Source: an uncultured delta proteobacterium (GTDB lineage: Bacteria; Desulfobacterota; Desulfarculia; JACQYL01; CAWGVV01). Taken from it: DNA of 64,000 nt. The stretch spans positions 513,478 through 577,477 of the forward strand of contig CAWGFI010000006.1 in assembly GCA_963821845.1 (NCBI GenBank), written 5' to 3'. Position 1 is the first letter of the stretch. Every line of letters starts with the position of its first letter. Below, piece by piece: positions 28,730 to 63,366 of the stretch. The translations under genes were made by a program, and so were the position numbers. Under the pieces are notes generated by a model that worked only from the letters and a program-made list of their open reading frames with translations, did not search any database and had not been told where the DNA came from.

Positions 28730-28806
28730 CGGGACGTAGCGCAGCCTGGGAGCGCACCTGAATGGGGTTCAGGGGGTCGGAGGTTCAAATCCTCTCGTCC
28801 CGACCA
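28730..28806 (+). tRNA. tRNA-Pro (anticodon GGG), CCA encoded
   Basis: Hand-folded cloverleaf. Acceptor stem CGGGACG/CGTCCCG. D stem GCGC/GCGC. Anticodon stem CCTGA/TCAGG with loop ATGGGGT (GGG at 34-36, G37). T stem GGAGG/CCTCT with loop TTCAAAT. Discriminator A, then CCA. Total 77 nt. Confidence 0.9.
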
Positions 28807-28915
28807 AATAAGACGATTAAAAGAGCAGGTTAGGAAAGCGCCTAATCTGCTCTTTTTTATTGGCTCGGCCGGAATCTACCAAATACCTACCACTCTTAGC
28901 CTGAACGCCGCATTC
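28759..28915 (+). repeat. Left direct repeat (attL-like): 3' 48 nt of tRNA-Pro + terminator hairpin + flank ending ...ctgaacgccgcattc
   Basis: Aligns with 63221..63366. The tRNA part has a single mismatch. Shared blocks are agagcaggtt, ctgctcttttttattggctcggcc and ctgaacgccgcattc. Confidence 0.75.
28822..28859 (+). terminator. Rho-independent terminator after tRNA-Pro
   Basis: Stem AGAGCAGGTTAGG/CCTAATCTGCTCT followed by TTTTTT. Confidence 0.7.
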
Positions 28916-28924
28916 CATCATCAA

Positions 28925-29181
28925 TCAAGGGACTTTGATCATGAGCGTAATGTCGAGCCGGCCTCTCACGTCCGCGTTCGGACCCATCCCCACGCCTGTT
29001 CCTTTGGTGAGAGTGGTCAAAAAGGAGAGAATTGAGTCTGGCGTTATCTGCTCTAATTCAATATCTCCAAAATGGTCTGAAAACTTGGCGAGCGTGTTGC
29101 CATACACCTTTGTCGTATTTTTTCCCCGAGTTCACCTTGTGATAATCCTGGTAATAGCGGATGGCTTGAAACAGCTCCATG
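28925..29181 (-). pseudogene. Tyrosine-recombinase (phage integrase) N-terminal SAM-like domain remnant, frameshifted and truncated
   Basis: The sequence is MELFQAIRYYQDYHKVNSGK(frameshift in an A-run)TTKVYGNTLAKFSDHFGDIELEQITPDSILSFLTTLTKGT..., then unrelated residues and a stop. Only about 85 codons remain and the catalytic domain is absent. It points toward the tRNA, 118 bp away. Confidence 0.55.
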
Positions 29182-29817
29182 GAACACCTCCTTTGGTTTA
29201 AAGGGTTAAGGTACTTGAGAATGTTTTAAGAAATGCTATGCAGAAACGCAATAAAATGAGCGGCTCATCTGGTATAGGTTCTGGAAAGCTTTCTTCAGTG
29301 GTCCGCCAGTACAAGGATGCTAAAATTCAGGTGATCAAGGCAGCGCTAATTGATTTCAGGAATACGGCGCTTTAGTTAACACAAATATGGTCAACGCCCT
29401 CGAGAGTCCCAAAATGCGAATGGACTTTAGACTACCAACGGGCGCTCTTGGTTGTCTCGAACATTCATTGTCTTCTAAGCCTGAACAATCCAAAAGTTCA
29501 TCACCGCACGGCACTGTCCCACGGAGGGTATTTGAGCGCCAGCGAGATTCAAAGAGCTTAGAATCGAAGTCTTTCGGCGTGCTTTTCCATTGAAACAGGG
29601 CGGTTCGGCAGAGAAATTTGCGCCGCGCCAGCTCTTCCTCGGTTTTCGAAGATACCCATGCGTATGACGTCAAACGTCGCGTAATTATAAAATCGCATTT
29701 TAAACGCCTGATTTCGGCAGACATTTACATATCCCGTTTGCAATTAGGCTCCTCGATTGGTACAAGTACGGTTGGCAGAACAAGCATACAATTTCGCCGA
29801 TTTGCCAGCCTCTTATT

Positions 29818-30489
29818 ATGCAGAGTTCCCTTCAATTCTTCCTACATCACCATGACAAGGTGTTCATGTGGGTATCGCAGCATATATGGATCAGCTTTGT
29901 TTCCATCCTGTTGGCATTGATCCTCGGCTTGTCGCTTGGAATCTACATCAGTCTGAACGGTAAGGAACGTCTCGCGGATGTGGTCATCTATCTGGCCGAG
30001 ATTATGATGACCGTGCCGAGTCTGGCCCTGTTCGGTCTGCTGATGTTTATTCTGGCTTACTTCGGTATTACCGCCATCGGCTTTGTTCCCGCCGTCATCA
30101 CGCTGGTCATATACGGTCAGCTACCCATTATCCGCAACACCCATACGGCTTTGTGCGGCGTCGATCCGGGCATCATAGAGGCTGGCAAAGGGATGGGAAT
30201 GACCGAAACGCAGCTCCTGTTCAAGGTAAAACTGCCGGTGGCCACGCCTGTGATCATGGCCGGGGTCCGCAACGCGACGATTCTCATAATAGGGATCGCG
30301 ACCATCGCGGCCCTGATCGGTTCGGGTGGGCTGGGCGCGCCTATTTTCAGAGGTCTGCGGAACGCCCGTATGGACCTTATCATTCTGGGCGGGGTTCTGG
30401 TGTCCCTGCTCGCGGTGTGCGCCGACGCTTTCATGTCCGTTGTTCAGAGGGTTGTGACGCCGAAAGGGATCAGAAAGAGTGCGCTATGA
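29818..30489 (+). CDS. Osmoprotectant (glycine betaine/choline/carnitine-type) ABC transporter permease, OpuBB/OpuCB-like
   Basis: 223 aa. BPD-transporter EAA-type loop: IIEAGKGMGMTETQLLFKVKLPVATPVIMAG. Confidence 0.85.
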   Translation: MQSSLQFFLHHHDKVFMWVSQHIWISFVSILLALILGLSLGIYISLNGKERLADVVIYLAEIMMTVPSLALFGLLMFILAYFGITAIGFVPAVITLVIYGQLPIIRNTHTALCGVDPGIIEAGKGMGMTETQLLFKVKLPVATPVIMAGVRNATILIIGIATIAALIGSGGLGAPIFRGLRNARMDLIILGGVLVSLLAVCADAFMSVVQRVVTPKGIRKSAL

Positions 30490-31592
30490 TCGAACTGGTT
30501 GAGGTGACCAAAACATATCCGAACGGAACCGAGGCGGTGAAACGGCTGAGTTTTACCGTGCGTGACGGCGAAACCTGTGTGCTACTGGGGCCGTCAGGCT
30601 GCGGCAAGACTACGGCCATGAAGCTCATCAACCGGCTCATCCCGGCGACTAGCGGCGGCATATTGATCGACGGTGTGGACAATAAAAAAATCGACGTTAA
30701 CGAGCTGCGAAGAAGCATCGGTTTCGCCATTCAGGATGTGGGGCTTTTTCCGCATATGACGGTGGGTCAGAACATAGCGACAGTCCCGGCGCTCAAGGGA
30801 TGGAGCAAAACCAGGCGGCGCGAGCGGGCTCTGGAATTACTGAACCTGCTGCGGCTGGATCCGAAAAAATTCATCGACAAGTACCCACATGAGCTGTCCG
30901 GAGGACAACGCCAGCGAGTGGGCGTGGCGCGGGCGCTGGGCGCGGACCCGCCCATCCTGTTGATGGATGAGCCCTTCGGCGCGATCGATCCCATCACCCG
31001 TATGGAGTTGCAGAACGAATTTCTGAAGATACAAGAACAGATCAAGAAGACGGTCATCTTTGTTACCCACGATATTTCGGAGGCCATAAAAATAGGAGAC
31101 CAAGTGGCGCTGATGAAAGCGGGCGAACTCGTCCAATTCGGTCCGCCCGTGGACCTGATATTCAATCCAAACACGGATTTCGCGAAATCGTTTACAGGAG
31201 TAGACAGCCCGCTCAAGGGGTTCAGGCGCTGCCGGTGGATACCGCCCTGTCCAATGAAACTCCCGCCGCCAAACCTCACGACAAATCGGACGCCGTCCGG
31301 TAAGCTTATGGACAAGGAAGACCTCCAATGGCTTCCGGTCATTGACGACGAGAACAAATATCTGGGCATGATATTCAGGCGGAATCTGCGCAAGGCCGAA
31401 ATCGTCTCCAAGATTCTCAGCAACAACATGGCCTACGCCACCAAGAACATGACCCTTGATCAGGCCCTTTCCCTACTGCTCACCAGCGGACAAAATTCCC
31501 TGGCGGTGGTGGACGAAGAAAGCGGGAATTTCGAAGGCGTGATCACCTTTGAAAAGCTGCAAAAGGAGCTTTCGGCTCTTTATAGGAAATAA
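30486..31592 (+). CDS. Osmoprotectant ABC transporter ATP-binding protein with C-terminal CBS pair (OpuBA/OpuCA-like); two internal compensating frameshifts
   Basis: Lies in ORF 30153..31592. The start ATG at 30486 overlaps the permease stop. Walker A is GPSGCGKTT, signature LSGGQRQRVGVARAL, Walker B ILLMDEPF. Between about 31205 and about 31300 the family-like sequence (VQALPVDTALSNETPAAKPHDKSDAVR) is in a different frame from the open one. Confidence 0.85.
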   Translation: MIELVEVTKTYPNGTEAVKRLSFTVRDGETCVLLGPSGCGKTTAMKLINRLIPATSGGILIDGVDNKKIDVNELRRSIGFAIQDVGLFPHMTVGQNIATVPALKGWSKTRRRERALELLNLLRLDPKKFIDKYPHELSGGQRQRVGVARALGADPPILLMDEPFGAIDPITRMELQNEFLKIQEQIKKTVIFVTHDISEAIKIGDQVALMKAGELVQFGPPVDLIFNPNTDFAKSFTGVDSPLKGFRRCRWIPPCPMKLPPPNLTTNRTPSGKLMDKEDLQWLPVIDDENKYLGMIFRRNLRKAEIVSKILSNNMAYATKNMTLDQALSLLLTSGQNSLAVVDEESGNFEGVITFEKLQKELSALYRK

Positions 31593-31601
31593 CCCCGATC
31601 A

Positions 31602-32396
31602 ATGAAACATTCCGTGGTTTTCATATGTTTGCTGACCGCGCTGCTCGGCCTCACGGCCTGGATCACCAGTTTGGGATCGATTGGCGGCGTGTACAGCGCT
31701 TTCTCGGCGGCGGACGTGACGCACAACGCTTGGGTCCACTTCAAGATGGTCTTTTTCTCGGTGGCCTTGGCCTCGTTAATCGGGGTTCCCGCCGGAATAC
31801 TGATCAGCCGGCCCGGTTTCAGCCGATTCGCCTGGATCGTTATCGGCGGGGCGGGTATCGGGCAAACCATCCCCAGCCTGGCCATCATTTCCATCATGGC
31901 CCCGATTCTGGGTTTCGGCCTGCAATCGGCCATTGCGGCGCTGGTCATTTACGGCCTGCTTCCCATCGTGCGGAACACATACGCGGGGATAAAAAGCATA
32001 GATCCGTCCATCATCGAAGCCGCCCAGGGCATGGGAATGGACAAGGCGCAGATCGCCTGGAAGATCGAAGCGCCCTTGTCCAAAAAGGTGATACTGGCCG
32101 GAATACGTGTTTCCACTGTTATCACCGTGGGCACGGCCGAACTGGCGGTGCTGGTGGGCGGCGAAGGGCTGGGGAAAATCACACTAACGGGCGTGTACGC
32201 GCGGGAGCCGCTTTTGATCCTGCAAGGCGCCGCGCCTACGGCCGCCATGGCCATAATCCTGGGATACCTGCTCGCGCATTTTGAAAATTGGCTGACACCG
32301 CAAGGGCTCAGGGGTAAACAAACGGCGCAGTGGGAGATTACCTGGAGTGCGAGATGCGAAGATCATTACCGGCCGTCATCTTGGCGGTTTTGCTGA
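31602..32396 (+). CDS. Osmoprotectant ABC transporter permease, OpuBD/OpuCD-like
   Basis: 264 aa. Contains IIEAAQGMGMDKAQIAWKIEAPLSKKVILAG. The last ~20 codons overlap the SBP start and may be out of frame. Confidence 0.8.
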   Translation: MKHSVVFICLLTALLGLTAWITSLGSIGGVYSAFSAADVTHNAWVHFKMVFFSVALASLIGVPAGILISRPGFSRFAWIVIGGAGIGQTIPSLAIISIMAPILGFGLQSAIAALVIYGLLPIVRNTYAGIKSIDPSIIEAAQGMGMDKAQIAWKIEAPLSKKVILAGIRVSTVITVGTAELAVLVGGEGLGKITLTGVYAREPLLILQGAAPTAAMAIILGYLLAHFENWLTPQGLRGKQTAQWEITWSARCEDHYRPSSWRFC

Positions 32397-33313
32397 CAGC
32401 TATTTTTTCCTTTCACCCAACATGGCGCGGGCTTCGGATAAGGAAATCGTTGTCGGCGCGAAAAACTTTACGGAGCAATACCTCATCGGCCAGATGATGA
32501 AGCAGCTTTTGGAAGATCGCGGTTTCAAGGTGTCCTTGCTGTCCGATCTTACCAGCGCGGCTTTGCGGGCGGGTATGGAAAGCGGCGACATCGACCTGTG
32601 CGCCGAATACATCGGGACCGCCTGGATGATTCACCTCAAACACGCGTATGAACCGGGCGTTTCCAATAAAGAACTCTATGAAAAAGTCAAGAAGCTGGAC
32701 GCTCAAAATGGGTTTCATTGGTTTCAGCCTATCTGGAACAACAACACCTTTGCGTTCGCTTCCTGGAACTCGTTCGCAAAGGAAAACAAGCTGAAAACCA
32801 TCTCCGATCTGGCGGCTCTATATAACGCAAAGGATGGGAACATCCCGACCTTTATCGATTTCGAATTCTCGGCGCGTCCCGACGGGTTGCCCGCGCTCGA
32901 ACAATTCTACGATTTCAAGGTCGCGCATTTCGGCGCTGAAGACCAGCGCGCCGGGGATATCACTATTGGGATTGAAGGATCACAAAGCGGAAGTGGTCAT
33001 GATTTTCGCCACCGACGCGTCGCTGACCAAATACGACTGGTACGTTTATCAAGACGATAAATCGTTTTTCCCGCCGTATGACCTGACTCCGTATATAAGA
33101 AAAGAGACGCTCGACAAGTATCCTGAAATCAAGGAAATTATCCGGGAACTCGTGGGTTCTTTTCCCGGAGGAAAAGGAGCCGCCGACGCCAAGGCGGTCG
33201 CGGAATGCCGGAAGGTATGGAGAACGCTCAACGCGCAGGTTGATATCGATCTGGAAGAGCCATCGGACGTGGCGCGAGCGTATTTGATTCGTAAAGGCCT
33301 TATAAAAAATTGA
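32354..33313 (+). pseudogene. Glycine betaine-type substrate-binding protein (OpuBC/OpuCC-like), frameshifted
   Basis: The signal peptide MRRSLPAVILAVLLTAIF is in one frame, with a shift in a T-run about 32405. The body (EIVVGAKNFTEQYLIGQMMKQLLEDRGF...) is in ORF 32347..33060. The C-terminus (VVMIFATDASLTKYDWYVYQDDKSFFPPYDLTPYIRKE...) is in ORF 32834..33313. Confidence 0.8.
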
Positions 33314-33390
33314 TAGTTTCTCGCGGACTACCTCGGCGGCCTATTTCCCTCGAAACGACAAACTGGACAACGTACGAGGAGAGCAACGCC

Positions 33391-33473: not shown

Positions 33474-33481
33474 TTGGACTT

Positions 33482-34997
33482 TTACGCGCAGTTAATTATT
33501 TTAGGCGGCCTTTCGGACCAGCGGCCGATGTTGGCTAGTATCAGGTCCGGACTTTCGTAGGCGTCCACCAGCAGCCGATGATAGTAGCATTCTTCCGCGC
33601 TTCTCAGATTGTCGTCGCGGTGGCTGGCGGAATATTTTCGCGCCTCTTCCTCGCTGTAGTTTTCAAAAAGACCCGACAATAGATCCACCGTCCCGCTGCC
33701 CTCATCGAACTGCTCTTTTTTGCGCCAGACGATCTCATCGGGCAGAAGATCCTCAACCGCCTTGCGCAGAATCCATTTTTCAACGGGGGGCGATCCGACA
33801 AGCTTATATTTGGCGGGAACCAGCATACCCATCTCGATCATCTTCAAATCCAGGAACGGCACGCGACCTTCTATAGAATGCGCCATGGTCATTCTGTCCA
33901 CGCGCTGAAGATTGATGTTATGCAGCGAACTCACCGACCGGCGCAATTCATCCTGGAGGATGTCCGGGTCCTTGATATCCTTGTAATAGGTGTAGCCGCC
34001 AAACAGTTCATCGGCCCCTTCCCCGGTCAGGATAACCTTCACATATTCCGCGGCGAGCCGTGAGGTGAAATAGCAGGGGATGGCGCTCCGCACCAGGTCC
34101 TGGTCGAAGGATTCCAGATAGTAGATGATTGTGGGGAGATCTTTTTTCACTTCCTCGGGCGTGATCACATACTCATGATGAATCGAGTCGATATGCCGGG
34201 CGACGATACGCGCGGCTTCGAGATCCTTGCTGCCCTCGATCCCCACGGAAAAAGTGTGCAGCGACCCCATGCTTCTCTTGACCAGAGCCGCGATAACGCT
34301 GCTGTCCAAACCTCCGGACAGAAACGCGCCCAGCGGCACGTCGCTCATGAGACGTTTCTCGACCGATTCCTCCAGCGTGGTTCGGATCTTTTTACAGTAC
34401 CTCGTCCGCGGAACCCTCCCGGCTTTTCAGGTTGGGCACGCTGTAAAAGGTGGAAAACCCTCGCTCGGAATGAAAACAGGAGCCTGGAGGAAATTCGTGG
34501 ATATCACGGCAGTTGGAAGGGAACGCCTTCAACTCGGACGCGAAAACCATGGAGTCATCCAGGTAACCGTAATAGAGCGGCTTGATGCCGATGGGATCGC
34601 GCGCCGCAAAGAAAGCGTTCCGGTCCGAAATGATAAAACTGAACATACCGTCCAGATGTTCGACGACGTCCGAAGCGCTGTCTTCATACTGGTGCAGTAT
34701 GGCTTCGGAGTCGCTAGTGGTTGAAAACCGGTGGCTGCGCGCCAGTTCGTCTTTCAGCCGTGGGAAATTATAGATTTCGCCATTGGCGATTATCGCTTTG
34801 GATCTGTTTTCGTTAAATATGGGCTGGTTTCCTCCTTGCGGGTCCATGATGCTGAGCCGCCGATGACCGAGGACGGTCTGGTCGTCGGAGGAAACAAAGG
34901 CGCCGTGCGCGTCCGGGCCTCGATGAACCATCGAATCGTTCATCCGTTCGATAACCGAGACGTCACTGCCTCCCCATATTGCCGATATGCCACACAT
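33482..34997 (-). pseudogene. Asparagine synthase (glutamine-hydrolysing) family amidotransferase, one frameshift near 34.37 kb
   Basis: The N-terminal Ntn-GATase domain starts MCGISAIWG (catalytic Cys2) in ORF 34392..34997. The synthetase domain, with PP-loop SDVPLGAFLSGGLDSS, is in ORF 33482..34348. Confidence 0.8.
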
Positions 34998-35097
34998 GCC
35001 TAACTCCCTTGGAACTCTGCGCTTGAAACGTACATCCGTTTGTCGGAACGCGCCGGTTGAATTCGAATTGCAGGATAAACGATAAAGAGCGTCCGCG

Positions 35098-36342
35098 CTA
35101 TTTCCTGATCTGGAATATGCCCACCAACCCGTGGCCTACGCCGGTACCGGGCTGAAGCTCCATTTCGAGCTTTCTTAAGCAATAACCGAGCATGGGCTCC
35201 AAAAAGTCCGCTCGGGCGTCAACCCAGTTGACCTCGCTCATATTGTCGGCGGTCGCGATCATGGTTTTCATGGCCTCCGCGAGCGACTCGTTTTCCCGGG
35301 CGTCCCGAGCCATTTGTTCGGCTTCGCTTTTCCGGCCTTCAAACAGCAGGGAAGCGCAATCAACCGCGTCGTTCACCGAGGAAAAAAAGTAGTCGAAAAA
35401 GCTGTTGAGCTTTTCATAGCCTTCGCGGGGCGTATGATCGATCTTCAGGCTCGACAGATCGGTGCGCATATGCGGTTCAAACAGAGAGTTCACATTGACG
35501 CGCATCTTTGGACAATTTGCGTTGTAATCGCCCGTGTCCATGTGCCGGCCGATAAGAATTGATCTATCGAAAAAAGACAACGGTTCTATGGTTACCCCGG
35601 ATCGCCGCGCGGCCGTGTCGATCACCGCGAGGATCTCCTGCTGAGTCATGAGCCGCAACGGGAACGAGGCGATATCGGCGTCTTGCCGCTCCTCTTCCGA
35701 GTAAATATAGGAAATGCGGTAATCCATGAAGTATTCCCGGTCCGGCGGGTTTCCCCACAGGTCCTGCCATTCGTAGGAATACCGCCCCAGCCAGTCGCCG
35801 ACAAATATCGAACCGTCAGCCGCGTGTTCGGCGACATCCGCAATAAGCGCCGCGTTTTGTTCGTCATGGAAGTGCGAAAGCGTTCCGTAGGTGGTGGAAT
35901 ACAGATCGAACGATTCTTCTCCCGTTATTTCCGCGGGCAGTCCATGGGTCAGATCAGCTTCCACGAATTTGTGCGTGGGAAGCTCCCCATAGATACCTTC
36001 GGCCATATCCAGCAGGTCCCGATTGATATCGAGGCCCACATATTCTTCCAAGACACCGGGTTTGATCACGTAGCCGTTGTTGACGGTGTTTTCTTCGGGA
36101 GACGGCACGGAAAGAAGCAATTCATAGCCGTCGGCGCTTCCGCAACCCATGTCGAGGACCCGGAGCTTCTGGCCGGCCGCGGTTTTACGGCCGGTAGCTT
36201 CGCTTAAAAATGGAGCAAGAAACAATGCGGTAGTCGCGTCCTCCCAGCACCGGCGCACGTTATCGTACTTGCCGAGCAACCGTGAGGACTTGTCATATTT
36301 CCCTGTGTTGACAGCCTGGGAATAAGCCGTTTTTTCAGCCAT
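35098..36342 (-). CDS. Class I SAM-dependent methyltransferase with a C-terminal extension of about 200 aa, substrate unknown
   Basis: 414 aa, intact. Motif I is RVLDMGCGSADG, post-I is YVGLDINRDLLDMA, followed by FVEADL and FDLYSTTYGTLSHF. The C-terminal half has no recognisable domain. Confidence 0.7.
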   Translation of the reverse strand: MAEKTAYSQAVNTGKYDKSSRLLGKYDNVRRCWEDATTALFLAPFLSEATGRKTAAGQKLRVLDMGCGSADGYELLLSVPSPEENTVNNGYVIKPGVLEEYVGLDINRDLLDMAEGIYGELPTHKFVEADLTHGLPAEITGEESFDLYSTTYGTLSHFHDEQNAALIADVAEHAADGSIFVGDWLGRYSYEWQDLWGNPPDREYFMDYRISYIYSEEERQDADIASFPLRLMTQQEILAVIDTAARRSGVTIEPLSFFDRSILIGRHMDTGDYNANCPKMRVNVNSLFEPHMRTDLSSLKIDHTPREGYEKLNSFFDYFFSSVNDAVDCASLLFEGRKSEAEQMARDARENESLAEAMKTMIATADNMSEVNWVDARADFLEPMLGYCLRKLEMELQPGTGVGHGLVGIFQIRK

Positions 36343-36371
36343 ATCGATACATCACCTAGTATGAGTTTAGG

Positions 36372-37056
36372 TTACGCGTTCAGCTCTTTTAGATAATCGA
36401 TCGCCTGGAACGCGTCCTTGCAGTGTTTGTCCGCGCCTATTTCATCGGCGAACTTGGAGGAAGTCGGCGCGCCGCCGATCAGGATTTTCACCTTGTCGCG
36501 AACATCGGCTTCTTTCAAAGCCGAGACGATTTCGCCCATTTCCCGCATGGTGGTCGTCAGAAGCGCCGACAGGCCAAGATACTGGGCGCCGTTGTTTTTC
36601 ACTTCCTCGACGATGGTCTTGGTGGCCACGTTGTTGCCTAGATCGATGACCTCATATCCCGCGCCCTTGAGAAGAATGGACACGATGTTCTTGCCGATGT
36701 CGTGCAAATCGTCCGCAGACGGTGGCTATGACGAATTTACCCTTGGGTTCCACGCCGTCTCTCAGCAGGTGGGGGCTCAATATATCCATCGCCGCGCCCA
36801 CGCATTCGGCCGAAGCGAGCATGTCGGGGATAAGGTATTCGCCTTTTTCGAATTTCTCGCCAACCTGTTCCATGGGAGTGGTAAGGGCGTCGACAACGAT
36901 TTCCTTGGCGTCTATGCTTTCCTCGATGGCCTGTTCCACCAGTTCCGTAACCGCGGGCTGCCCTTCAAGACCCTCGTCGATTCCTTCATCTTCCGCTTCC
37001 ACGCGTCCTTGAACTACATTAAATGCGATTTTTTCCAAATATTCCTGTTTATTCAT
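36372..37056 (-). pseudogene. Corrinoid (cobalamin-binding) methyl-carrier protein, MtgC/MtbC-like, one frameshift near 36.71 kb
   Basis: The N-terminal B12-binding_2 cap domain is in ORF 36652..37056. The Rossmann B12 domain, with DxHxxG (DDLHDIGKNIV), is in the frame of ORF 36372..36707. Confidence 0.8.
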
Positions 37057-37097
37057 AATGTTGACCTCTCTTATAGCTTTCCCGCGAAGGGCTTCAG

Positions 37098-38692: not shown

Positions 38693-38695
38693 TTC

Positions 38696-39490: not shown

Positions 39491-39503
39491 AAGACGCTTC
39501 CTT

Positions 39504-40967: not shown

Positions 40968-41012
40968 GGTCTGCGTTACCTTATGTTTTGGTGATTTTAG
41001 TTCGGGAGGTCT

Positions 41013-51406: not shown

Positions 51407-51562
51407 GACCAGTATACAGCCGTGGAGGATTGTTCCCGCTGCATGGTCCTTGGTCTTTATCCCCGCCGCACAGCGGCCTATACCCTTGACTTCCTGGACA
51501 GGGTCGTCGAGGAAATGCCCTTCCCAATTCAACGTATTCAGACAGATAGAGGCCAGCTATGA
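51407..51562 (+). mobile_element. IS481-family (DDE/rve) transposase internal fragment of about 52 codons
   Basis: Within ORF 51281..51562, QYTAVEDCSRCMVLGLYPRRTAAYTLDFLDRVVEEMPFPIQRIQTDRGQ matches the conserved integrase-core stretch of IS481-type transposases. It is fused in frame to the isochorismatase remnant. No terminal inverted repeats were identified. Confidence 0.6.
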
Positions 51563-53113: not shown

Positions 53114-53117
53114 CCCT

Positions 53118-55089: not shown

Positions 55090-55133
55090 CCCCGTTCATG
55101 GCTTACAAATTTCTTGCCTTGGCGGTCCGATCG

Positions 55134-56795
55134 TTATGTGTTCCCGCCTTCTCTCATCAATTGCCAGACACCCCTGAGCGGAATCCTTATCCAGGTCGGC
55201 CGGTTGTTGATTTCATAGGCCAGCTCGTACACGGCCTTTTCCAGCAAATGGACGTCCAGCAGCAGTCGGCGCTCATCGGCGCTTTCAGGCAGAAACCCGC
55301 CTGCGCTAGCGCTGTCCAGATATGACCCGGTAAAGGCGGCGCACACCCAGGTGGACCAGCAGAGCGCCCATGACTCAAACAGTGGGGACTGTTCCTGGCC
55401 CGGTTGCGCGAGCAGGGTAGCGTACGCGGCGTAGTGGAACGACCGCAGCATGCCCGCCACATCCGTCATGGGCGAACGCTTTACCCGCCGCTCGCCGATG
55501 GGGCGGGCCGGTTCTCCTTCGAAGTCGATAATCAGAAAGTCATCGCCCGTATGGAGTACCTGGCCCAGATGGTAATCCCCGTGGCAGCGGATGCGCATGG
55601 CGGTAATACGCTTCTTCAGGAGGTCTTCAACGCGCCGGAGTATATCCGCTTCGCCGCTCAGAAGCGCCTCCGCCTCGCTTCGGACATCCTCCGGCAGTTC
55701 GTTCACACGCCGCCGCAGGAGCGCAAACGCCTGTTCGAGCAGCTTGGCTATTGATTGATAAAGCGCGCTCAGCGACTGATCGGAGTAGGGTTCAGGCGCG
55801 AAGTCGGGATTTGAGGGATCGGAAGCCAGCGCGGTGTGAAGCTCGGCGGTGCGTCTGCCCAACAGCTTCGCGTCGTTCAGATAGGACCCGATCAAATCGG
55901 CCACGTCATCGGGCGGCTCTTTTCCGGCCAGATCCAGGAGCCTGACGTCGCGAATCTCGCCGGGATCGTAGTTCTTCACCCACACTTTGACGCGCTCAAA
56001 AAAGGCGTCCAGCGCTCCCAGCGTATACTTCCACGCGTCGCCCTGGTTGGGAACGTAGCCCTGCAACGTGGCCAGAGTCATCTTCTCGTCGCCCTTCAGA
56101 TATTCCATGGAGCCCGCCAGGGGAGGGATGTGCTTAAATCCGCGCCGCATAAGAAAACGGCTGATCTCCAAATCCGGATTGACGCCTGGTTGCAGACGCC
56201 GAAACAGCTTGAGTATGAACTGTTTTCCGAAAATTACAGACGTGTTGCTCTGCTCACCGCTCGCCAGCGAAGGCTCAACCCGGTCATCAAGCGCCCGCCT
56301 CAGTTCCGGAAACACCGAAGTGGAAGTGGCCGCCAACTCTCCGATCATTCCTTTGATTCGATGGTCAGTGGCCATGAGGCGCAACAGGGTGTAACAGAAA
56401 TCCTGGTCCGTCATGGCGTCATAAAGAACGCCTCCTTCAACGTTTCGCTCCTTCGGCTTCAGGCGGGCCACCACGCTCGCCGGACGCTCTTCCACCAACC
56501 GATCCGCCCGCGCCTCCGTCGCGTAAGCCAAGGGAAGAACGTAGACCTCGTCCCCCTGGTCCGCGTAGCGGATCCTAACCAAGGTGATGAACGCCGGCAG
56601 CGGCGCTTCCTCGACAACGATCACTTCCTCGATTTTCGCGGACCCGATCCCGCGGGCCTTTGCGCCGAACCAGCGGCAGGCCCGCAGGTACTCGGGAAGC
56701 GCCGCTTCGAGTACGGCTTTGGCCGATCCTGACAGACACGCTTCGGGGCCGGGCACATCTTCGAGTATCGGGATTTGAATCGTGTGAGCGTTCAT
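55134..56795 (-). CDS. mak: Maltokinase (Mak/Pep2-like), stand-alone
   Basis: 553 aa, intact. Contains LPEYLRACRWFGAKAR and the kinase core RCHGDYHLGQVLHTGDDFLIIDFEGEPARPIGERRVKRSPMTDVAGMLRSFHYA. Confidence 0.75.
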   Translation of the reverse strand: MNAHTIQIPILEDVPGPEACLSGSAKAVLEAALPEYLRACRWFGAKARGIGSAKIEEVIVVEEAPLPAFITLVRIRYADQGDEVYVLPLAYATEARADRLVEERPASVVARLKPKERNVEGGVLYDAMTDQDFCYTLLRLMATDHRIKGMIGELAATSTSVFPELRRALDDRVEPSLASGEQSNTSVIFGKQFILKLFRRLQPGVNPDLEISRFLMRRGFKHIPPLAGSMEYLKGDEKMTLATLQGYVPNQGDAWKYTLGALDAFFERVKVWVKNYDPGEIRDVRLLDLAGKEPPDDVADLIGSYLNDAKLLGRRTAELHTALASDPSNPDFAPEPYSDQSLSALYQSIAKLLEQAFALLRRRVNELPEDVRSEAEALLSGEADILRRVEDLLKKRITAMRIRCHGDYHLGQVLHTGDDFLIIDFEGEPARPIGERRVKRSPMTDVAGMLRSFHYAAYATLLAQPGQEQSPLFESWALCWSTWVCAAFTGSYLDSASAGGFLPESADERRLLLDVHLLEKAVYELAYEINNRPTWIRIPLRGVWQLMREGGNT

Positions 56796-56830
56796 AGATG
56801 TCGTTCCTGAAATACCCCGCGGCGCAAGGG

Positions 56831-58822
56831 TTACATGAAGTAGTCGAAATCGCGTTCAGTGCGTACGCGGCGTCTGAGCCGGAAGATATGGGCCGGCATA
56901 ATCCGTGGATCTATTTCCACATAGTTTCCGGCGCCGTGCCAGAGATACCGGGCGTCGCTCAACAAGTCATGGACCTGGAAAGTCTTGGTCGGCTCCAGTC
57001 CCCATTCATCGAGGGGAAGTTCCAGCCAGCCCGAGTGCGTATAATGCAGATCAAGGTTTACGATCACCAGGATGATATTGGAATAATCCTCGGAGTGTTT
57101 GCTGTAGCAGATGAGCTGTTCATTATCGATGGAGTGGAATTGCAGGCTCAAGTCACCCTGAAGCGCCGAATTTTCCTTGCGTATCCGATTTATTCGCCCG
57201 ATGAGCGCCTTGAGGTTGTCCGGGCTCTTGATATTCCATTGCTTGATTTCGTATTTTTCGGAATTCAGGTATTCCTCGCTCCCGAATTCCTTGGGCAGGT
57301 TGTCCCCCAACTCAAAGGCAGGGCCGTAAATACCATAATTGGCGCCCAGCGTGGCCGCCAGAACCAGCCTGGTGACAAAGGCCGGCCGGCCTCCTATCTG
57401 GAGGAATTCGGTCAGGATGTCCGGCGTGTTCGGCCACAGGTTGGCCCGGAAAAACTCGCGCGCCTCCCCAAGATAGAGTTCAGTGAAGTATTCGGTGATC
57501 TCCCATTTGGTGTTGCGCCACGCGAAATATGTGTACGACTGCGTGAATCCGAGCTTGGCCAGCCGGTACATAACCTTGGGCCGGGTAAAGGCCTCGGCCA
57601 GAAAAATAACGTCGGGATAATCCCGTTTTACTTCCCCGATCACCCACTCCCAAAAGCTGAAAGACTTGGTATGAGGATTGTCCACCCGGAATATCCGCAC
57701 TCCCTGATCGATCCAGAACAGAAAAATGGATTTCAGTTCTTGCCACAGTTCCCGCCACTGATCGGTCTCAAAATTGATGGGATAGATGTCCTGGTATTTC
57801 TTGGGGGGATTTTCGGCGTATTGAATGGCGCCATCGGGCCGCTTGCGGAACCATTCGGGATGCTCCTTCACATATGGATGATCCGGCGTACACTGAAAAG
57901 CGATGTCCAACGCCACCTCAATACCGCTCTCCGCGGCTTTGGCGACTAGATTGCGGAAATCATCGAGCGTTCCGAGTTGCGGAAGGACCGATTTGTGGCC
58001 TCCCTCATCCGAACCGATGGCCCAGGGGCTGCCGGGATCCTCGGGAGACGCCTGCGCGGAATTGTTTTTTCCCTTGCGGAAGGTGTGGCCTATGGGATGG
58101 ATGGGCGGCAGATAGAGCACGTCGAAACCCATCTGAGCGATATAGGGCAACCTGGCTTCGCAATCCTTGAAATCGCCATGCTTGCCGGTCTCTTTTGCGC
58201 AGGATCGGGGGAACATCTCGTACCAGGCGCTGCAGCGGGCTTTGGGCCGGTCCACGACCACCTGCAGCTCTTTTTCATACAGCGTGGCGAACCGTCTGTC
58301 CGGGTAGCGGGCCATCAGCAAAATCAGCGCTTCGTCCTGGACGACACTCGCCGCGCCTTCGGCGGTTTGAGCGTTTTTTAACTCTATCGCCCATTCCTCC
58401 AGCTTTTTGGCGTCCGCCCTCGATGCCCGCAACAGGGCGTCTTCGATGAGACCCGCTCCGATCAGGATATCCACGGCTACGTCCTGACCGGCGTCCACTT
58501 TTTTGATCAGGTCGCCCCGCCAGGTTTTGAAATGATCCACCCACGCTTGAAGCGTATACACGTAGCGTCCGATTTCGCGCGCCACGAACGAACCCGCCCA
58601 GCGATCATTGAGGAGAAATTTCAGGGGCGTTTCGGTCCATTCGGGCTCGTCCTCCCTGCGGTATAAAAGCGACGCGGAGAGAGAATCGTGGCTATCGGCG
58701 AAGATATCCGCTTCAACCGTGATTTTTTCACCGGTTGTGCGCTTAATGGGATAGCGGCCGCCGTCGATCTCCGGCTTTACCCGCTCGATAATGACTCGTT
58801 TTCTGTCTTCCAAAGGCAGCAT
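56831..58822 (-). CDS. glgE: Alpha-1,4-glucan:maltose-1-phosphate maltosyltransferase
   Basis: 663 aa, intact. Starts with RVIIERVKPEIDGGRYPIKRTTGE (GlgE domain N). GH13_3 core blocks are GFDVLYLPPIHPIG, GIRIFRVDNPHTK and IFLAEAFTRP. Confidence 0.9.
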   Translation of the reverse strand: MLPLEDRKRVIIERVKPEIDGGRYPIKRTTGEKITVEADIFADSHDSLSASLLYRREDEPEWTETPLKFLLNDRWAGSFVAREIGRYVYTLQAWVDHFKTWRGDLIKKVDAGQDVAVDILIGAGLIEDALLRASRADAKKLEEWAIELKNAQTAEGAASVVQDEALILLMARYPDRRFATLYEKELQVVVDRPKARCSAWYEMFPRSCAKETGKHGDFKDCEARLPYIAQMGFDVLYLPPIHPIGHTFRKGKNNSAQASPEDPGSPWAIGSDEGGHKSVLPQLGTLDDFRNLVAKAAESGIEVALDIAFQCTPDHPYVKEHPEWFRKRPDGAIQYAENPPKKYQDIYPINFETDQWRELWQELKSIFLFWIDQGVRIFRVDNPHTKSFSFWEWVIGEVKRDYPDVIFLAEAFTRPKVMYRLAKLGFTQSYTYFAWRNTKWEITEYFTELYLGEAREFFRANLWPNTPDILTEFLQIGGRPAFVTRLVLAATLGANYGIYGPAFELGDNLPKEFGSEEYLNSEKYEIKQWNIKSPDNLKALIGRINRIRKENSALQGDLSLQFHSIDNEQLICYSKHSEDYSNIILVIVNLDLHYTHSGWLELPLDEWGLEPTKTFQVHDLLSDARYLWHGAGNYVEIDPRIMPAHIFRLRRRVRTERDFDYFM

Positions 58823-58865
58823 CGGCTCCGGCCCCTCTCGATGTTTCTCGTGCTTGCTTCAGACG

Positions 58866-61800
58866 TTAATATCCCAGAAGGCGCTGGATCCCCGTTAAAG
58901 GAATGACAATCCAGTCCGGACGGTTGTTCAGGTCGTAATCGAGTTCGTAAATTGCCTTTTCCAGCATAAAAGCTTTCAAAAGCACATCCAGATCCTCCCG
59001 TTTCCTGGGGAAATAATCCGCCCCATTCGCCGCATCCAGATAAGCCTTGAGGTAGATTCCTCCCACATACTTGTACCAGAGGTCTCCGGCCTGCTCCAAC
59101 CACTGGAGCGCTTCCGGCCTGAGCGAAACACGGTTGGAAACGGCCTGGAGCGCCCGGTGAATGGCGTAATGAAAGGATCTGATCATTCCGGCCACGTCCC
59201 TGAGAGGCGATAACTTCAGCCTCCGTTCGCTCAGTGAGCGTAAGGGTTCTCCCTCAAAATCGAAAATGACAAAATCATTCCCGGTGTACAGCACCTGATC
59301 CAGATGAAAATCCCCATGGATTCTGGTTCGGAGCGCGGATATCTTTCTTCCCAGAAGCCCTTTGAATTTCGCCAGAATCTCCTGCTGAAGTCCCAGAATT
59401 TCCAGAGACTGTTCCCGAGCGTTCTCCGGCAGGGATTTGACGCTTTTTCGAAGCGTACCGAAGACCCGTTTGGTCAGGCTCTGCATGGACTGGTACAGAG
59501 ATCGCTGGTACAGCAGCGAAAACGGCTCCGGCGTGAACTTCCGGTTTCCTCCTGCCGACGTGAGCGCCCTATGAAGCTCCGCTGTCCGCTTCCCCAGGAT
59601 GGTGATCATCTCCAGATATAATCCCCCGGTCAGCTCCTGAAAAAGCTCGGGCGTTTCCTCGATATCCATGGCCATGAAAGACGAGTATGCGTCGGGTTCG
59701 CCAAGCTCTTCCGCGTCGGGTTCCGTAGTGTCGGCGCCCGTGCCCGCGAAATCCGGCAGCTCCCGCATCTCGTCTTTTCGCTCCAGCACGCGCTCGAAGT
59801 ACCTGTTCCGCCGTATTGACGGTGTAGTTCCACGCGGTCCCCTGGTTGGGCACGTAGGCCTGCAGAATGCCTAACCCCATGGGATCGGCTCCGGGACGCC
59901 GGTACTGGACCGCTCCCGCGAATCGTGGCACGGCGTCGAATGAAATCTCCTCGGTGAGGAACCTCCCCAGCTCTATGTCCGGGTTTTCCCCCTCGTCGAC
60001 TCGCCTGAACAGTTTGAAATGGAGGTCCCTTCCATACACAAAGGAGGTGTTTCGCTGTGTTGATTCAAGAACTTCCGACTTTTCCATCAGCGCGTTCTTG
60101 TCCTTGACTCCTTTCAGAAAAGGCCCCGCGTAGCCGCTCACCTGTCCCTGCGGACCGGATAGGGTTTTGCGGCCCATAACGAGCTGGAGCAGAAGCTTAC
60201 GGAATTCTTCATCATAGGCGGAATCATAGAGCACGCCGTGCTCCTGGCCTTTCAGATTGGCCACAATGGATTGGGGATACGTCTCTGCGACCGCGGCGGC
60301 CTGTACACCAGAAACCAGGGAAAGCGGCAATAGATAGATCTTGGGAAGCCCCTCGAAGAAATTGACGTTCAGAACAAGCAGATGGATGTGGCCGTCCCTG
60401 CCCATGGGAATATCTTCCGAAATCTGGCAGTTTCTTATTCTGCGGGTGGTATGAAGGAACCATTTGCATCGCTTGATAAAAGCGGGGAGTAGCTCCTTTT
60501 CCAGTTTCTCCTTCTGGGTCTTCTGCATAACCCGGTCCCACCGGCTGTCGGCGTACAAGTCCCGCGTGTCTCGCGCTTTATCGGTCGAAACCGTCTCGTC
60601 TTCCTTCTGAATCAAAAGCCAGAAGTAGTCGTAAAAGCCCAGCGTGAACACATAGGGGGCTTCCGTGATGAGAGGGAAACGGTTCTTGCCGAACACATCC
60701 TCCAGGAAGCGTCCCGCGTAGGGGGAAAGATCCAGTTCCGCCACCTGGGAGTAGCGGGAAAGATTAACCAGGACCAGTATTTCTTCGTTTTCGTAACTCC
60801 GCACAAACGCCAGAACGCGAGGATTTTCCGGGTGCAGGAAGGTGATTTGCCCCCTGCCGAAGGCCTTGAAATTTTTTCGCATGGCGATCAGCCGTTTCAT
60901 CCACCACAGAAAAGAGCCGCTGTTGCGCTCCATATTGGCGACATTGACCGCCTCATACCGATATTCCGGATCGGTGATCACCGGCAGATAAAGCTTTTGC
61001 GGGTTGGCCTTGGAAAACCCGGCGTTCAGGTCCGCCGACCACTGCATGGGCGTCCGGACACCGTTTCTGTCGCCTAGATAGTAATTGTCGCCCATCCCGA
61101 TTTCGTCCCCGTAGTAAATTACCGGAGTTCCCGGCAGGGATAACAGGAGGATGTTCATCAGCTCCATTTTTCTGCGGTGATTCCCCAATAAGGGCGCCAG
61201 ACGCCTGCGTATGCCCAAGTTGATTTTGGCCACAGGGTCCCGAGCGTACACCCGGTACATGTAGTCCCGTTCCTCATCGCTCACCATTTCCAGGGTCAGT
61301 TCGTCATGATTCCGCAAAAAAAGAGCCCATTGGCAGCCATCGGGTATGGCGGGAGTCTGATCCAGTATGTCGATGATCGGGTAGCGGTCTTCCATCCAGC
61401 AGGCCATGAATATCCGCGGCATCAGCGGAAAATGAAACGCCATGTGGCATTCGTCGCCTTTGCCGAAATAGGCCACCGCGTCCTCCGGCCACTGGTTGGC
61501 TTCCGCCAGGAACATCCGGTTCTGGAACTTGTTGTCCACATGGGACCGGAGTTTTTTCAGGAACTCATGGGTCTGGGGCAAGTTCTCGCAGTTGGTTCCT
61601 TCCCGCTCGAAAAGGTAGGGGATCGCGTCCAGCCGCAATCCGTCCACGCCCATATTGAGCCAGTGGTCGAGGACCTTGAAAAGAGCCTTCTGCATCTGAG
61701 GGCTGTCAAAGTTCAGGTCAGGCTGATGGGAATAGAACCGGTGCCAATAATAGGCCTTGGCCACGGGGTCCCAGGTCCAGTTGGAGGCCTCGAAATCCTG

Positions 61801-62265
61801 GAAGATGATTCGGGTGTCCTGGTACTTGTCCGGAGAATCGCTCCAGACATAGAAATCCCTGGCCTTGGTACCGGGCCCGGCCTGCCTGGCTGTTTGAAAC
61901 CAGAGGTGCTGGTCGGAAGTATGGTTTATCACCAGTTCCGTGATGACCCTGATTCCTCTGGCGTGGGCTTCCCGCAGAAACTCCTTGAAATCGTTCAACT
62001 GACCGAACGCGGCGTGCACCCCGGTATAATCGGCGATATCGTAACCGTCGTCCTTCAAGGGAGAAGGATAAAAGGGCAGGAGCCAGATGACGGTGATACC
62101 CAAGTCTTCTAGATAGTCCAGCTTTTGGGTCAGCCCCTTGAAATCACCAATCCCGTCCCCGTTACTGTCGAAAAAGGTCTTTACATGGAGTTCGTAAACG
62201 ATAGCGTCCTTGTACCAAAACGGATCATCATCCAATACGGCGCCTCCGTCTCTACGCTTTATCAT
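58866..62265 (-). pseudogene. treS: Trehalose synthase-maltokinase fusion (TreS-Mak), one frameshift near 59.79 kb
   Basis: The TreS GH13 domain (FWYKDAIVYELHVKTFFDSNGDGIGDFKGL..., GVDGLRLDAIPYLFE) plus the Mak N-domain are in ORF 59569..62265. The Mak kinase core (RIHGDFHLDQVLYTGNDFVIFDFEGEP) is in ORF 58866..59789. Confidence 0.85.
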
Positions 62266-62712
62266 GATTGAAATCCTCTTGAATCCAGGCCAATAAGCTC
62301 CTCACTCGAAAATCGATTGGCGCGCATCATGATCGCGATCCGCTCAATTCGCATAATTATAGATTAACACATTTTCCGGTCATTCAACGCCAATCATGAC
62401 CTTAACTCAATAAGGAGACGTATATAAGCCCCCTATCGTTTTGATATTTTTAAAGATATAAGGAATCATTTTCTTGATTGCCCGACCTTGAGCCTCTGCG
62501 GCGGCTCTACTATCTCTACTAAGGGAAGGGCAGACTAGACCGGATATTCTAATCATGTCCTGATATCTTAATATAAATTAATACTCGAGGATCGGACCAT
62601 TGGGTCTTTCATGTATTGGGTTAGGAAAAAAGCGGTATGAATCGGATATATTTGAGGTAAATGTTCAATTTCGCGCTTACATGGTTTCTGGGAGTTCCCA
62701 GACCTGAAATCC

Positions 62713-62925
62713 CTAATTTATTGTGAAAACGTTTCTATACCCCCCAATCTTCGGGATTACTTCTCTCAACCTCATTTTTTGGCCGAATAGCGTTGATGCG
62801 AGCTCATTTAGATAATTAAGATCTATTATTGAATAAGTACGCTGTTTGGTCCAACTTTTGCCCCTTTTCTGACCACAAAGTCTTTCGTATACTATCTCGC
62901 CTTTGATGATGTGGGCATAAGTCAA
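62713..62925 (-). CDS. Hypothetical small protein in the AT-rich island edge (possibly a frameshifted remnant)
   Basis: 70-aa ORF. An overlapping 41-codon ORF (MKTIVIDLCPHH...) begins at about 62950 in another frame. No family recognised. Confidence 0.25.
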   Translation of the reverse strand: MTYAHIIKGEIVYERLCGQKRGKSWTKQRTYSIIDLNYLNELASTLFGQKMRLREVIPKIGGYRNVFTIN

Positions 62926-63220
62926 TGACGATAGTTTTCATTTTTGTCATACAGTGGGGTCAACCGTCCCTGGCTGTATCGGAGCGGTGCGGATCGCGGT
63001 CGGAGAGCGCTGTCAGAAATTTGACTCGAGAAATTTGAACTGTTGGCGCCCCACTCGAGAAAATTGTTCATCGGTAAAAGCTATGGGTTTTAGGTACAAA
63101 CTCAACCCCGAATGAAGTCCTTAGCTCTGCACACTCTGCACAGATGAATTATAAAATCTGGTGGATGGTAAACGATCGTAATTTCAGTACGTTACAGTTA
63201 AATATTTCTTCTGGAAATTA

Positions 63221-63366
63221 TGAATGGGGTTCAGGGGGGCGGAGGTTCAAATCCTCTCGTCCCGACCAAATTTTAAAATGACAAGAGCAGGTTCGGAATA
63301 GCCGGACCTGCTCTTTTTTTATTGGCTCGGCCTAAAGGTAGCCTACTTAGGCTGAACGCCGCATTC
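63221..63366 (+). repeat. Right direct repeat (attR-like): orphan 3' 48 nt of tRNA-Pro + terminator hairpin + flank
   Basis: tgaatggggttcaggggGgcggaggttcaaatcctctcgtcccgacca matches tRNA positions 30-77 with one mismatch. It is followed by the hairpin AGAGCAGGTTCGG/CCGGACCTGCTCT + T7, then attggctcggcc...ctgaacgccgcattc. No 5' tRNA half precedes it. Confidence 0.75.

Follow-up and report, generated by a model that had tools for sequence, protein, structure and literature searches.

Why the 3' part of a tRNA-Pro(GGG) gene should recur 34.5 kb downstream of the intact gene, and whether the DNA between the two copies entered the chromosome as a mobile element, are the questions raised by a locus in the genome of an uncultured delta proteobacterium (contig CAWGFI010000006.1 of assembly GCA_963821845.1, positions 513,478 to 577,477 of the forward strand; the whole of these 64,000 nucleotides is here called the window and numbered from 1). 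An earlier note on this DNA had interpreted the interval as a mobile, now fixed, island with a coherent osmoadaptation cargo, anchored in the tRNA gene. When analysing the locus together with related genomes the interval appeared likely to be the scar of a site-specific integration by a tyrosine integrase into tRNA-Pro(GGG), centred on the anticodon loop, at a site that acts as a hotspot of strain-to-strain variation within this uncultured Desulfobacterota-like lineage. Of the interpretation in the note, the anatomy of the attachment (att) sites, the integrase remnant and the use of the tRNA as integration site stood, while the coherence of the cargo, the frameshifts as a sign of decay, the empty site and the osmoadaptive role did not.

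The sole tRNA gene of the window, according to ARAGORN, is tRNA-Pro(GGG), located at 28730-28806 on the plus strand and matched by the Rfam tRNA model with 58.5 bits. The tRNA, its displaced copy and the adjoining features are listed here, L081 being an ENA assembly contig (ERZ25039495) ~98% identical to the window.

~28690-28717: promoter of tRNA-Pro, sigma-70-like, TTGACA-17-TAAACA, read by eye
28730..28806, plus strand: intact tRNA-Pro(GGG) (ARAGORN, Rfam), 100% identical to the tRNA of L081
28759-28806, plus strand: left identity block (attL core), tRNA nt 30-77
28822..28853, plus strand: left terminator hairpin with a 13-bp stem, AGAGCAGGTTAGG / CCTAATCTGCTCT, then a T-run (fold)
28857..28915, plus strand: left arm blocks, ATTGGCTCGGCC, a spacer with two CTACC direct repeats ~11 nt apart, and CTGAACGCCGCATTC
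28916..28967, minus strand: terminal ~50 nt (3' end) of an integrase gene of the L081 type (blastn against L081)
29005..29190, minus strand: N-terminal SAM-like domain, ~60 codons, of a different tyrosine integrase (MELFQAIRYYQDYHK...ITPDSILSFLTTLTKGT)
63221..63268, plus strand: displaced 3' fragment of tRNA-Pro (attR core), nt 30-77, direct orientation
63284..63314, plus strand: right terminator hairpin, AGAGCAGGTTCGG / CCGGACCTGCTCT, then a T-run (fold, terminator scan)
63319..63366, plus strand: right copy of the blocks, ending 19 nt before the AcnX stop codon
63385..63783, minus strand: AcnX swivel-domain subunit (Pfam AcnX_swivel_put), taken as the right chromosomal flank

The fragment at 63221-63268 lies on the same strand as the tRNA and 34.46 kb away from it, and 47 of its 48 positions are identical to tRNA nt 30-77, the lone mismatch being a T to G change in the variable loop; the intact gene and the orphan copy with one mismatch described in the note were in this way borne out by ARAGORN, Rfam and alignment. 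The 28-nt T-arm/acceptor piece occurs in exactly two copies in the 64 kb, with 0 expected by chance in shuffled sequences. With the anticodon at nt 35-37, the first nucleotide of the identity block, nt 30, falls within the 5' strand of the anticodon stem. Similarity runs on past the tRNA to 28915 on the left and 63366 on the right, this part of the repeat having 79 identities in 111 aligned columns, an 11-nt gap included, and the pairwise alignment proposed in the note confirmed a repeat of 157 versus 146 nt with 126 identities (87.5% over ungapped columns), which as family D1 is the longest direct repeat within the interval. Both edges of the repeat are sharp. Upstream of nt 30, where 150 nt were compared, the local alignment score was reached by 67 of 1000 shuffles, and past the last block, where 200 nt were compared, by 755 of 1000. 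A weak ATGGTAAAC common to the upstream sequences of both copies, considered as a decayed promoter together with the 5' half of the tRNA, was rejected as non-significant at the same 67 of 1000 shuffles. The pair formed by the tRNA and its 3' fragment supports the attL/attR anatomy of an insertion by a tyrosine integrase at the anticodon loop.

A YidC search of a large protein collection gave relatives closer than the GTDB representatives, among which the best YidC identity was 66% and no tRNA-Pro was found near rpmH. The contigs of these relatives end within 7-10 kb. Exact look-ups of RnpA, AcnX and GlgE of the window, and of the protein P0121, gave no match in a contig index. From rsmG through rpmH, intergenic DNA included, L081 has 97-99% identity to the window; in the tRNA the identity is 100%, over 28807-28967 it is 86.4%, and past 28967 there is no similarity. 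In this contig the same tRNA, hairpin and blocks are followed by an intact 339-aa tyrosine integrase (PF00589), transcribed towards the tRNA and with its stop codon 2-3 nt past the last block. The contigs L082-L085 (JGI and Logan) stem from relatives whose YidC is 82% identical, and there too the tRNA, hairpin and blocks are present, followed by a 149-aa internal integrase fragment homologous to the L081 integrase, and downstream of it by IS3 scraps and unrelated metabolic genes (IclR, 2-oxoacid:ferredoxin oxidoreductase, isochorismatase and others). One of these contigs, L084 (Logan SRR5506727_17121), ends at its position 1 exactly at nt 30 of tRNA-Pro, the start nucleotide of the repeat, which suggests a repeat or a variable junction at nt 30 in that population too. 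L086 (80% YidC identity) has, after the tRNA, a terminator that is unrelated and a gene of the metallo-beta-lactamase fold, without an integrase. Since integrases or alternative content follow the tRNA in these relatives, the tRNA-Pro by rpmH is an integration site clade-wide. The integrase locus is intact once and decayed twice, differently. Even for strains that are 98% identical to each other, the sequence that follows the tRNA has not been inherited together with the flank. The use of the tRNA as integration site, as claimed in the note, consequently agrees with the intact integrase of L081, the decayed ones of L082-L085 and the collapse of identity at the 3' end of the tRNA. In L081 (1-6257) the integrase is followed by two inverted IS3 copies (HTH_Tnp_1 + rve) that flank an IS4 transposase, after which the contig ends. 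No relative of the L081 integrase was found in IMG/VR and there is therefore no sign of phage.

Each copy of the tRNA 3' part is followed by a hairpin, with a folding energy of -23.3 kcal/mol (z = -6.9) on the left and -24.8 kcal/mol (z = -7.4) on the right, and 0 of 200 shuffles fold as well. Between the copies 3 of the 13 stem pairs differ, through one double change (A-T to C-G) and two one-sided changes (G.T to G-C; T-A to T.G), and pairing is kept in all three. The co-variation described in the note was accordingly found in so far as pairing is preserved at the differing pairs, but only a single pair is compensatory. These differences fit two homologous terminators each kept under selection, and the view that the right copy is a diverged homologue rather than a recent duplicate was supported. 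The left hairpin is identical in L081 and near-identical in L082 and hence belongs to the integrase-proximal arm of the element; the right one points towards the AcnX operon, which converges on it.

The blocks ATTGGCTCGGCC and CTGAACGCCGCATTC each occur exactly twice in the window, and the spacer between them is 11 nt shorter in the right copy, which is without one of the CTACC repeats, while all int-adjacent copies retain both. In L081 and L082 the blocks are situated between the hairpin and the int stop codon, a position that makes them candidate arm-type integrase sites. A search of the JGI metagenomes with a DNA pattern consisting of the tRNA 3' end and ATTGGCTCGGCC gave no match. When comparing the blocks (28859-28870/63321-63332 and 28901-28915/63352-63366) they are identical between left and right in the window but show 2-3 differences each in L081 (the 98% strain) and L082 (an 82% relative). 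The hairpin shows the opposite pattern, the left hairpin of the window being the same as that of L081. Gene conversion between the repeats, or a constraint on the blocks as protein-binding sites, are possible explanations of this contrast.

At the att-proximal position where the note had placed a truncated int gene an N-terminal integrase remnant is indeed present (~29005-29190, minus strand). It matches Phage_int_SAM_5/1/3/4 of Pfam with E = 5e-4 to 9e-3 and the phrog_1 integrase with E = 1.8e-4, so that the search proposed in the note returned integrase families, but all of the matches fall below the cut-offs, the curated one of phrog_1 included. The reading frame of the remnant changes once, in an A6 run, and the remnant ends after TKGT; its N-terminal domain is dissimilar to the N-terminus of the L081 integrase. 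A single decayed integrase, as proposed earlier, does therefore not describe the remnant, which is a same-orientation fusion of pieces from two integrases, one L081-type (28916-28967) and the other of the second kind (29005-29190). One deletion within a tandem pair of elements would be the simplest origin of this fusion, with an internal deletion in a mosaic int as the alternative. A HMMER scan of 1.8 billion representative proteins with the remnant gave 16 matches, 11 of them short open reading frames (ORFs) of 53-126 aa with the motif ITPDEILSFLT.LTEGTKQSTKR, and a word-index homologue search with the remnant gave no matches. P0245-P0257 are the library matches to 28928-29131 (minus strand) of the window. 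All close homologues of the N-terminal remnant in this library are short ORFs, with 0 full-length integrases, and one of them, P0256, runs on into the C-terminus of an IS3-type transposase. The remnant-type integrase seems to be mostly met as wreckage, or to be confined to short contigs.

On the right-hand side the AcnX swivel subunit is 100% identical to P0121 over 132 aa and its gene is the last of an AcnX operon whose conservation extends to the 82% relative (L087). In this relative a block-2-like sequence, TTGAACCCCG (TTGGTTTGAACCCCG), is found 11 nt from the AcnX stop codon, with no piece of tRNA-Pro there, and TTGGTTTGAACCCCG agrees at 13 of 15 positions with block 2 in the integrase arm of the relative itself. 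Two origins are conceivable for the right copy, either as the native spacer that separated tRNA-Pro from AcnX or as the arm left by an earlier element since deleted; the motif by the AcnX stop codon of the relative suggests the native spacer and the missing CTACC repeat of the right copy favours it as well. Another mobile element is located beside the AcnX operon of the same relative (L087 10400-20399, JGI 3300005252). Its genes (HTH_3, AAA_25, HTH_17, reverse transcriptase RVT_1 and PRTase-CE) make up a retron-like defence cargo, bounded by a 3' piece of a tRNA with a long variable arm (~L087 11135-11180) and an IS3 transposase scrap.

Read together, these features propose the following course of events. 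The element's attP would have carried its own version of tRNA nt 30-77, an intrinsic terminator and an arm of ~65 nt, located just downstream of the 3' end of int, and a tyrosine integrase would have recombined it with the tRNA gene at the anticodon loop. The insertion would have regenerated a complete and terminated tRNA at the left end (attL), while the original 3' half and its own terminator were presumably displaced by 34.5 kb to a position beside the AcnX operon (attR), which the displaced terminator may also close from the convergent side. A later deletion of ~0.8-1 kb would then have destroyed the integrase by fusing ~50 nt of the end of one int gene to ~60 codons of another, most simply in a single deletion if two elements stood in tandem, and the segment would now be locked and no longer able to excise. 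We infer that all 34.5 kb may have arrived through the tRNA-Pro site, in one insertion event or more.

The content between the repeats is a patchwork of an importer, a corrinoid module, ahcY/metK, a MarC/MscS block, insertion sequence (IS) debris and a GlgE cluster, arranged as follows.

28968..29800, no strand: AT-rich stretch at the left inner edge with no recognisable gene, GC 0.459, no Pfam/PHROG matches
29818..33313, plus strand: OpuC-type quaternary-amine ABC importer, consisting of permease, ATPase+CBS, permease and OpuAC binding protein (split, two frames) (Pfam BPD_transp_1, ABC_tran+CBS, OpuAC)
33482..36342, minus strand: asparagine-synthase-like gene (split) and 414-aa methyltransferase dependent on S-adenosylmethionine (SAM) (Pfam Asn_synthase, GATase_7, Methyltransf_25)
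36372..41771, minus strand: corrinoid methyl-transfer module with corrinoid protein (split), MttB-family gene 2 (1-nt frame break), methyl-tetrahydrofolate (THF):corrinoid methyltransferase, intact MttB-family gene 1 of the non-pyrrolysine (non-Pyl) type and a 252-aa protein with a weak Met_synt_B12 match (Pfam B12-binding, B12-binding_2, MTTB, Pterin_bind)
41866..46131, minus strand: MarR, ahcY (S-adenosylhomocysteine hydrolase), metK (SAM synthetase, split), MarR (Pfam MarR, AdoHcyase, S-AdoMet_synt_N/M/C)
46388..50297, minus strand: AT-rich module with MarC-family membrane protein and 693-aa MscS/MscK-like channel (Pfam MarC, MS_channel; NCBIfam MscK/MscM partial)
51172..51559, plus strand: junction debris, isochorismatase fragment (51172-51333) and DDE transposase (rve) fragment (51272-51559)
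51896..62265, minus strand except GlgM: trehalose-to-alpha-glucan (GlgE) pathway (Pfam, NCBIfam)
51896-53113, plus strand: GlgM-type GT4
53118-55089, minus strand: GlgB, split
55134-56795, minus strand: maltokinase
56831-58822, minus strand: GlgE
58866-62265, minus strand: TreS-maltokinase fusion, split
62266..63220, no strand: AT-rich stretch at the right inner edge with no recognisable gene, GC 0.441, no Pfam matches

The list of cargo genes in the note was confirmed by Pfam and NCBIfam. However, the cargo does not form a coherent unit but a mosaic of at least three compositional modules, with scraps of isochorismatase and rve at 51172-51559 (E = 8.9e-6 and 2.7e-4, both below the Pfam cut-offs) between the AT-rich MarC/MscS block and the glucan cluster. 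Six-frame pieces of four AT-rich stretches matched nothing in any fetched locus, and Pfam gave only these rve/isochorismatase scraps. The right inner edge, 62266-63220, presumably consists of the P arm and the treS promoter region. In the glucan cluster the full set of the GlgE pathway is present (TreS, maltokinase, GlgE, GlgB and GlgM, with GlgB and TreS-Mak broken by frame breaks), as judged by NCBIfam scores of 883.8 bits against a cut-off of 678 (treS_nterm), 450.9 against 375 (TreS_Cterm maltokinase) and 469.5 against 302 (glgA_Coryne), together with the domains GlgE_dom_N_S, GLGE_C, CBM_48 and Alpha-amylase_C. The best TreS relatives in JGI metagenomes, among the matches listed, are ~60% identical and none of them comes from samples with the 82% relative. 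The two maltokinase copies, the free one at 55134-56795 and the one fused to TreS at 58866-59789, share nucleotide stretches that are 71-84% identical (repeat families D2 and D5).

For the corrinoid module NCBIfam placed NF005719 above and trimeth_pyl below the cut-off. The MttB-family ORF at 39504-40967 is fully open and has GGT (Gly) at the pyrrolysine position, the codon before the PYLIS match, and this intact homologue scores 444.6 against TIGR02369, below the cut-off of 525. A Pyl-dependent trimethylamine methyltransferase MttB was consequently rejected, there being no in-frame UAG, and the same holds for a pyrrolysine reading of the split MttB copy, in which the break is a 1-nt frame shift and not an in-frame UAG. 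Rfam reports a PYLIS_3 match within the intact ORF (39899-39998, minus strand; 47.7 bits versus a gathering score of 38), which probably reflects homology of the coding sequence and not a functional PYLIS. Osmoadaptation can reasonably be proposed for the importer, the channel and the trehalose genes. As a description of the whole island it goes further than the gene content, the MttB/corrinoid/methyl-THF module reading equally well as catabolic demethylation.

GC windows confirmed that the DNA just inside both repeats is AT-rich, as the note had stated, with 0.459 at 29-30 kb and 0.441 at 62-63 kb compared with 0.53-0.63 elsewhere. The mean GC content at third codon positions (GC3) is 0.65 in the island genes versus 0.74 in the flank genes (Mann-Whitney p = 3.6e-5), a modest lowering that holds across the interval, and the MarC/MscS block, with a GC content of 0.41-0.50, is compositionally the most atypical part of the window. 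Tetranucleotide frequencies were correlated with the 28.7 kb flank as reference, the baseline being the mutual correlation of 5.7-kb flank pieces, 0.85-0.89 with a mean of 0.871, and gave these values for the island.

29.8-35.5 kb: 0.881
35.5-41.2 kb: 0.865
41.2-46.9 kb: 0.832
46.9-52.6 kb: 0.772
52.6-58.3 kb: 0.838

Only 46.9-52.6 kb, the piece with the MarC/MscS block, is clearly foreign in composition. The compositional check proposed in the note was thereby answered in part, the AT-rich edges, the lower GC3 and the atypical 46.9-52.6 kb being in agreement with an island but 29.8-41.2 kb being flank-like. The composition fits an old, ameliorated acquisition or a transfer from a close relative, and leaves room for native DNA in the hotspot.

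At least eight genes of the interval are split by frame breaks, opuAC, asnB, the genes of the corrinoid protein and of MttB (mttB), metK, glgB and treS-mak among them. In the left flank AcrB is found in at least three pieces (8105-11496, minus strand) and in the right flank the AcnX large subunit is split (63800-64000, minus strand), while the region 16-28.7 kb looks free of frame breaks. Homopolymer density is equal in flank and island. As split genes occur in flanks and island alike, the breaks are best read as assembly indels and not as island-specific decay, and both an enrichment of frameshifts in the island and the frameshifted state of the integrase remnant were dismissed as signs of decay. 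A 948-aa minus-strand ORF in the left part of the window (2957-5803) has no Pfam match and overlaps plus-strand ORFs at 2966-4483 and 4520-5809.

The genes rpmH-rnpA-yidC are usually found near the origin of replication. The cumulative GC skew of the window peaks at ~30-33 kb, being positive from 7 to 33 kb and negative from 33 kb on. The window contains no dnaA gene and no cluster of DnaA boxes, and an oriC in the AT-rich stretches was rejected, there being no perfect DnaA box and no clustering in them.

Several observations weigh against an origin of the interval by integration. The search for an empty site suggested in the note revealed no junction of tRNA-Pro directly with AcnX in any relative examined; alternative content follows the tRNA in L081, L082-L085 and L086 while the empty junction is absent among the relatives, and the AcnX-side contigs of other relatives (L172, L173) have other neighbours and no empty site. 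The interval has no mobility genes beyond remnants and scraps, neither conjugation (relaxase, type IV secretion system), phage, replication nor excision genes being detected by Pfam and PHROG among the ORFs of 28.8-63.4 kb, and the integrase remnant falls below every curated cut-off. The importer and methyl-transfer genes at 29.8-41.2 kb are at the flank baseline in composition and may be long-resident, derived from a close relative or native, and two genes of the segment, ahcY and metK, normally belong to the single-copy core. The window also comes probably from a long-read metagenome assembly with indel errors, in which fine detail is unreliable. A different history, considered rather unlikely, has the right copy as the remaining arm of an earlier related element, of which int and body were lost by deletion as far as AcnX, and the 34.5 kb as the product of several insertions, IS events and deletions and not as one cargo. 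In L081, in L082 and on the left side of the window the hairpin and blocks form the arm in front of the int stop codon, an arm-site function for the integrase would explain the conservation of the blocks in the right copy, and the two integrase remnants fused at 28967-29005 imply at least two elements; the IS debris at 51.2-51.6 kb and the three compositional modules point the same way, and tandem arrays are known at tRNA genes (tDNAs), with 125 in Islander (PMC4383910). Such a history needs, however, a deletion that ends within a few nt of the would-be int stop codon, the block-2-like motif without a tRNA-Pro piece on the AcnX side of the 82% relative is simpler as native spacer, and the right copy is without a CTACC repeat that all int-adjacent copies hold. 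It overlaps largely with the scar of a site-specific integration, the sole differences being where the right copy came from and how many events took place.

The divergence past the tRNA (79/111) with changes that preserve structure, as expected for two old functional copies, the host-like tetranucleotide signature of 29.8-41.2 kb and the absence of an empty site among the relatives examined would also suit a second tRNA-Pro(GGG) gene that decayed after an old segmental duplication, the genes in between being ordinary chromosome. This is held to be very improbable, as neutral decay gives no step such as the one observed, with 98% identity over the 3' 48 nt and no significant similarity in the 29 nt upstream, and the step lies in the anticodon stem, the crossover location of the commonest class of integrases (PMC4383910). 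Integrase genes moreover adjoin this tRNA in three genomes, the match to the 98% strain breaks down where the tRNA ends and the contig of a relative (L084) stops at nt 30. Equally improbable is that strains or loci were joined in the assembly at their common tRNA 3' segment, giving an arrangement absent from any one genome. The many indel-type gene breaks and the inferred long-read metagenome assembly are in line with it, as are the names of the related ENA contigs L081 and L086 (contig_NNNNN) and the different structure at the site in the 98% strain, which is of the same ENA assembly series; but a repeat of 48-150 nt is far below typical long-read length, both junctions show the expected att anatomy in the correct direct orientation, and GC3 and gene orientation are continuous across the segment.

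A more far-reaching version of the integration scenario, decidedly unlikely, is that the lineage hosts still-active elements specific for tRNA-Pro(GGG) which move core-like metabolic blocks without transfer genes of their own. Their attP would be a replacement cassette, made of the tRNA 3' half, a co-evolving terminator and arm sites from the native tRNA-Pro/AcnX spacer, and the elements would swap alleles next to rpmH between 98%-identical strains; among the blocks so moved would be betaine uptake and demethylation, ahcY/metK and the GlgE pathway in full. If this were true, the 34.5 kb would be a transferable solute-handling module caught just after the loss of its integrase.

The likely integration scar was compared with known systems. 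In the Islander survey 3760 of 3919 islands have a 3' fragment and 2083 of 3919 an anticodon-centred attP, and the anticodon-centred type with 3' fragment is the commonest class of tDNA islands (PMC4383910). Of the components by which Islander defines an island, the locus has the intact tRNA, the cognate fragment in direct orientation and a fragment boundary, at nt 30, that fits one of the known crossover sublocations (anticodon loop or T-loop), here the anticodon-centred class, the integrase being present inside the interval as remnants only. Like the islands of that survey it has its ends marked by a regenerated tRNA and a displaced cognate 3' fragment in direct orientation that starts in the anticodon stem, an integrase, here a remnant, beside the tDNA and, with 34.5 kb, a typical size. 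Unlike them it would fail the Islander integrase filter, its integrase being destroyed, it carries no phage or conjugation genes in a mosaic content of mostly host-like composition, and the similarity of its ends extends ~100 nt past the tRNA, diverged and with a co-varying terminator. Such a long, diverged extension of the repeat past the tRNA is a known kind of variation.

pSAM2 and other integrative elements in tRNA-Pro of actinomycetes have an identity segment of ~50-60 nt from the anticodon loop to the 3' end, with int adjacent. The locus resembles them in its tRNA-Pro target, in the identity segment from the anticodon loop to the 3' end and in the int beside the att site, but its host belongs to an unrelated phylum and the segment contains no replication or transfer genes. 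By NCBIfam the integrase is a generic XerC/D-like tyrosine recombinase. With the symbiosis island of Mesorhizobium (tRNA-Phe) it shares metabolic cargo, a tRNA anchor and a short direct repeat of the tRNA 3' end; islands of that type, however, are integrative and conjugative elements with transfer genes and an active integrase, neither of which is found here, where mobility has been lost. As in known GlgE clusters all the named enzymes are present, but the order is TreS-Mak, GlgE, a second Mak and GlgB with GlgM divergent, whereas most of the metagenome loci fetched have GlgE, TreS-Mak, GlgB, and the best TreS relatives, among those listed, are only ~60% identical. The corrinoid module likewise has the named enzymes of the quaternary-amine:corrinoid systems of the MttB superfamily, and differs from the Pyl type in the Gly sense codon.

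Taken as a whole, the feature is a tDNA-anchored, anticodon-centred genomic island or integration hotspot, old, patchwork and immobilised, and as such of an ordinary and well-documented kind that does not change the existing understanding of how genomic islands function. It provides a clean and well-delimited example of a hotspot beside rpmH-rnpA-yidC in a poorly known anaerobic lineage, related genomes showing the same integrase locus in three stages of decay reached independently. The locus could be used for mapping strain-level variation in metagenomes and for defining the att site of the L081-type integrase, and it may allow a test of whether the quaternary-amine and trehalose/glucan modules are accessory traits in this lineage.

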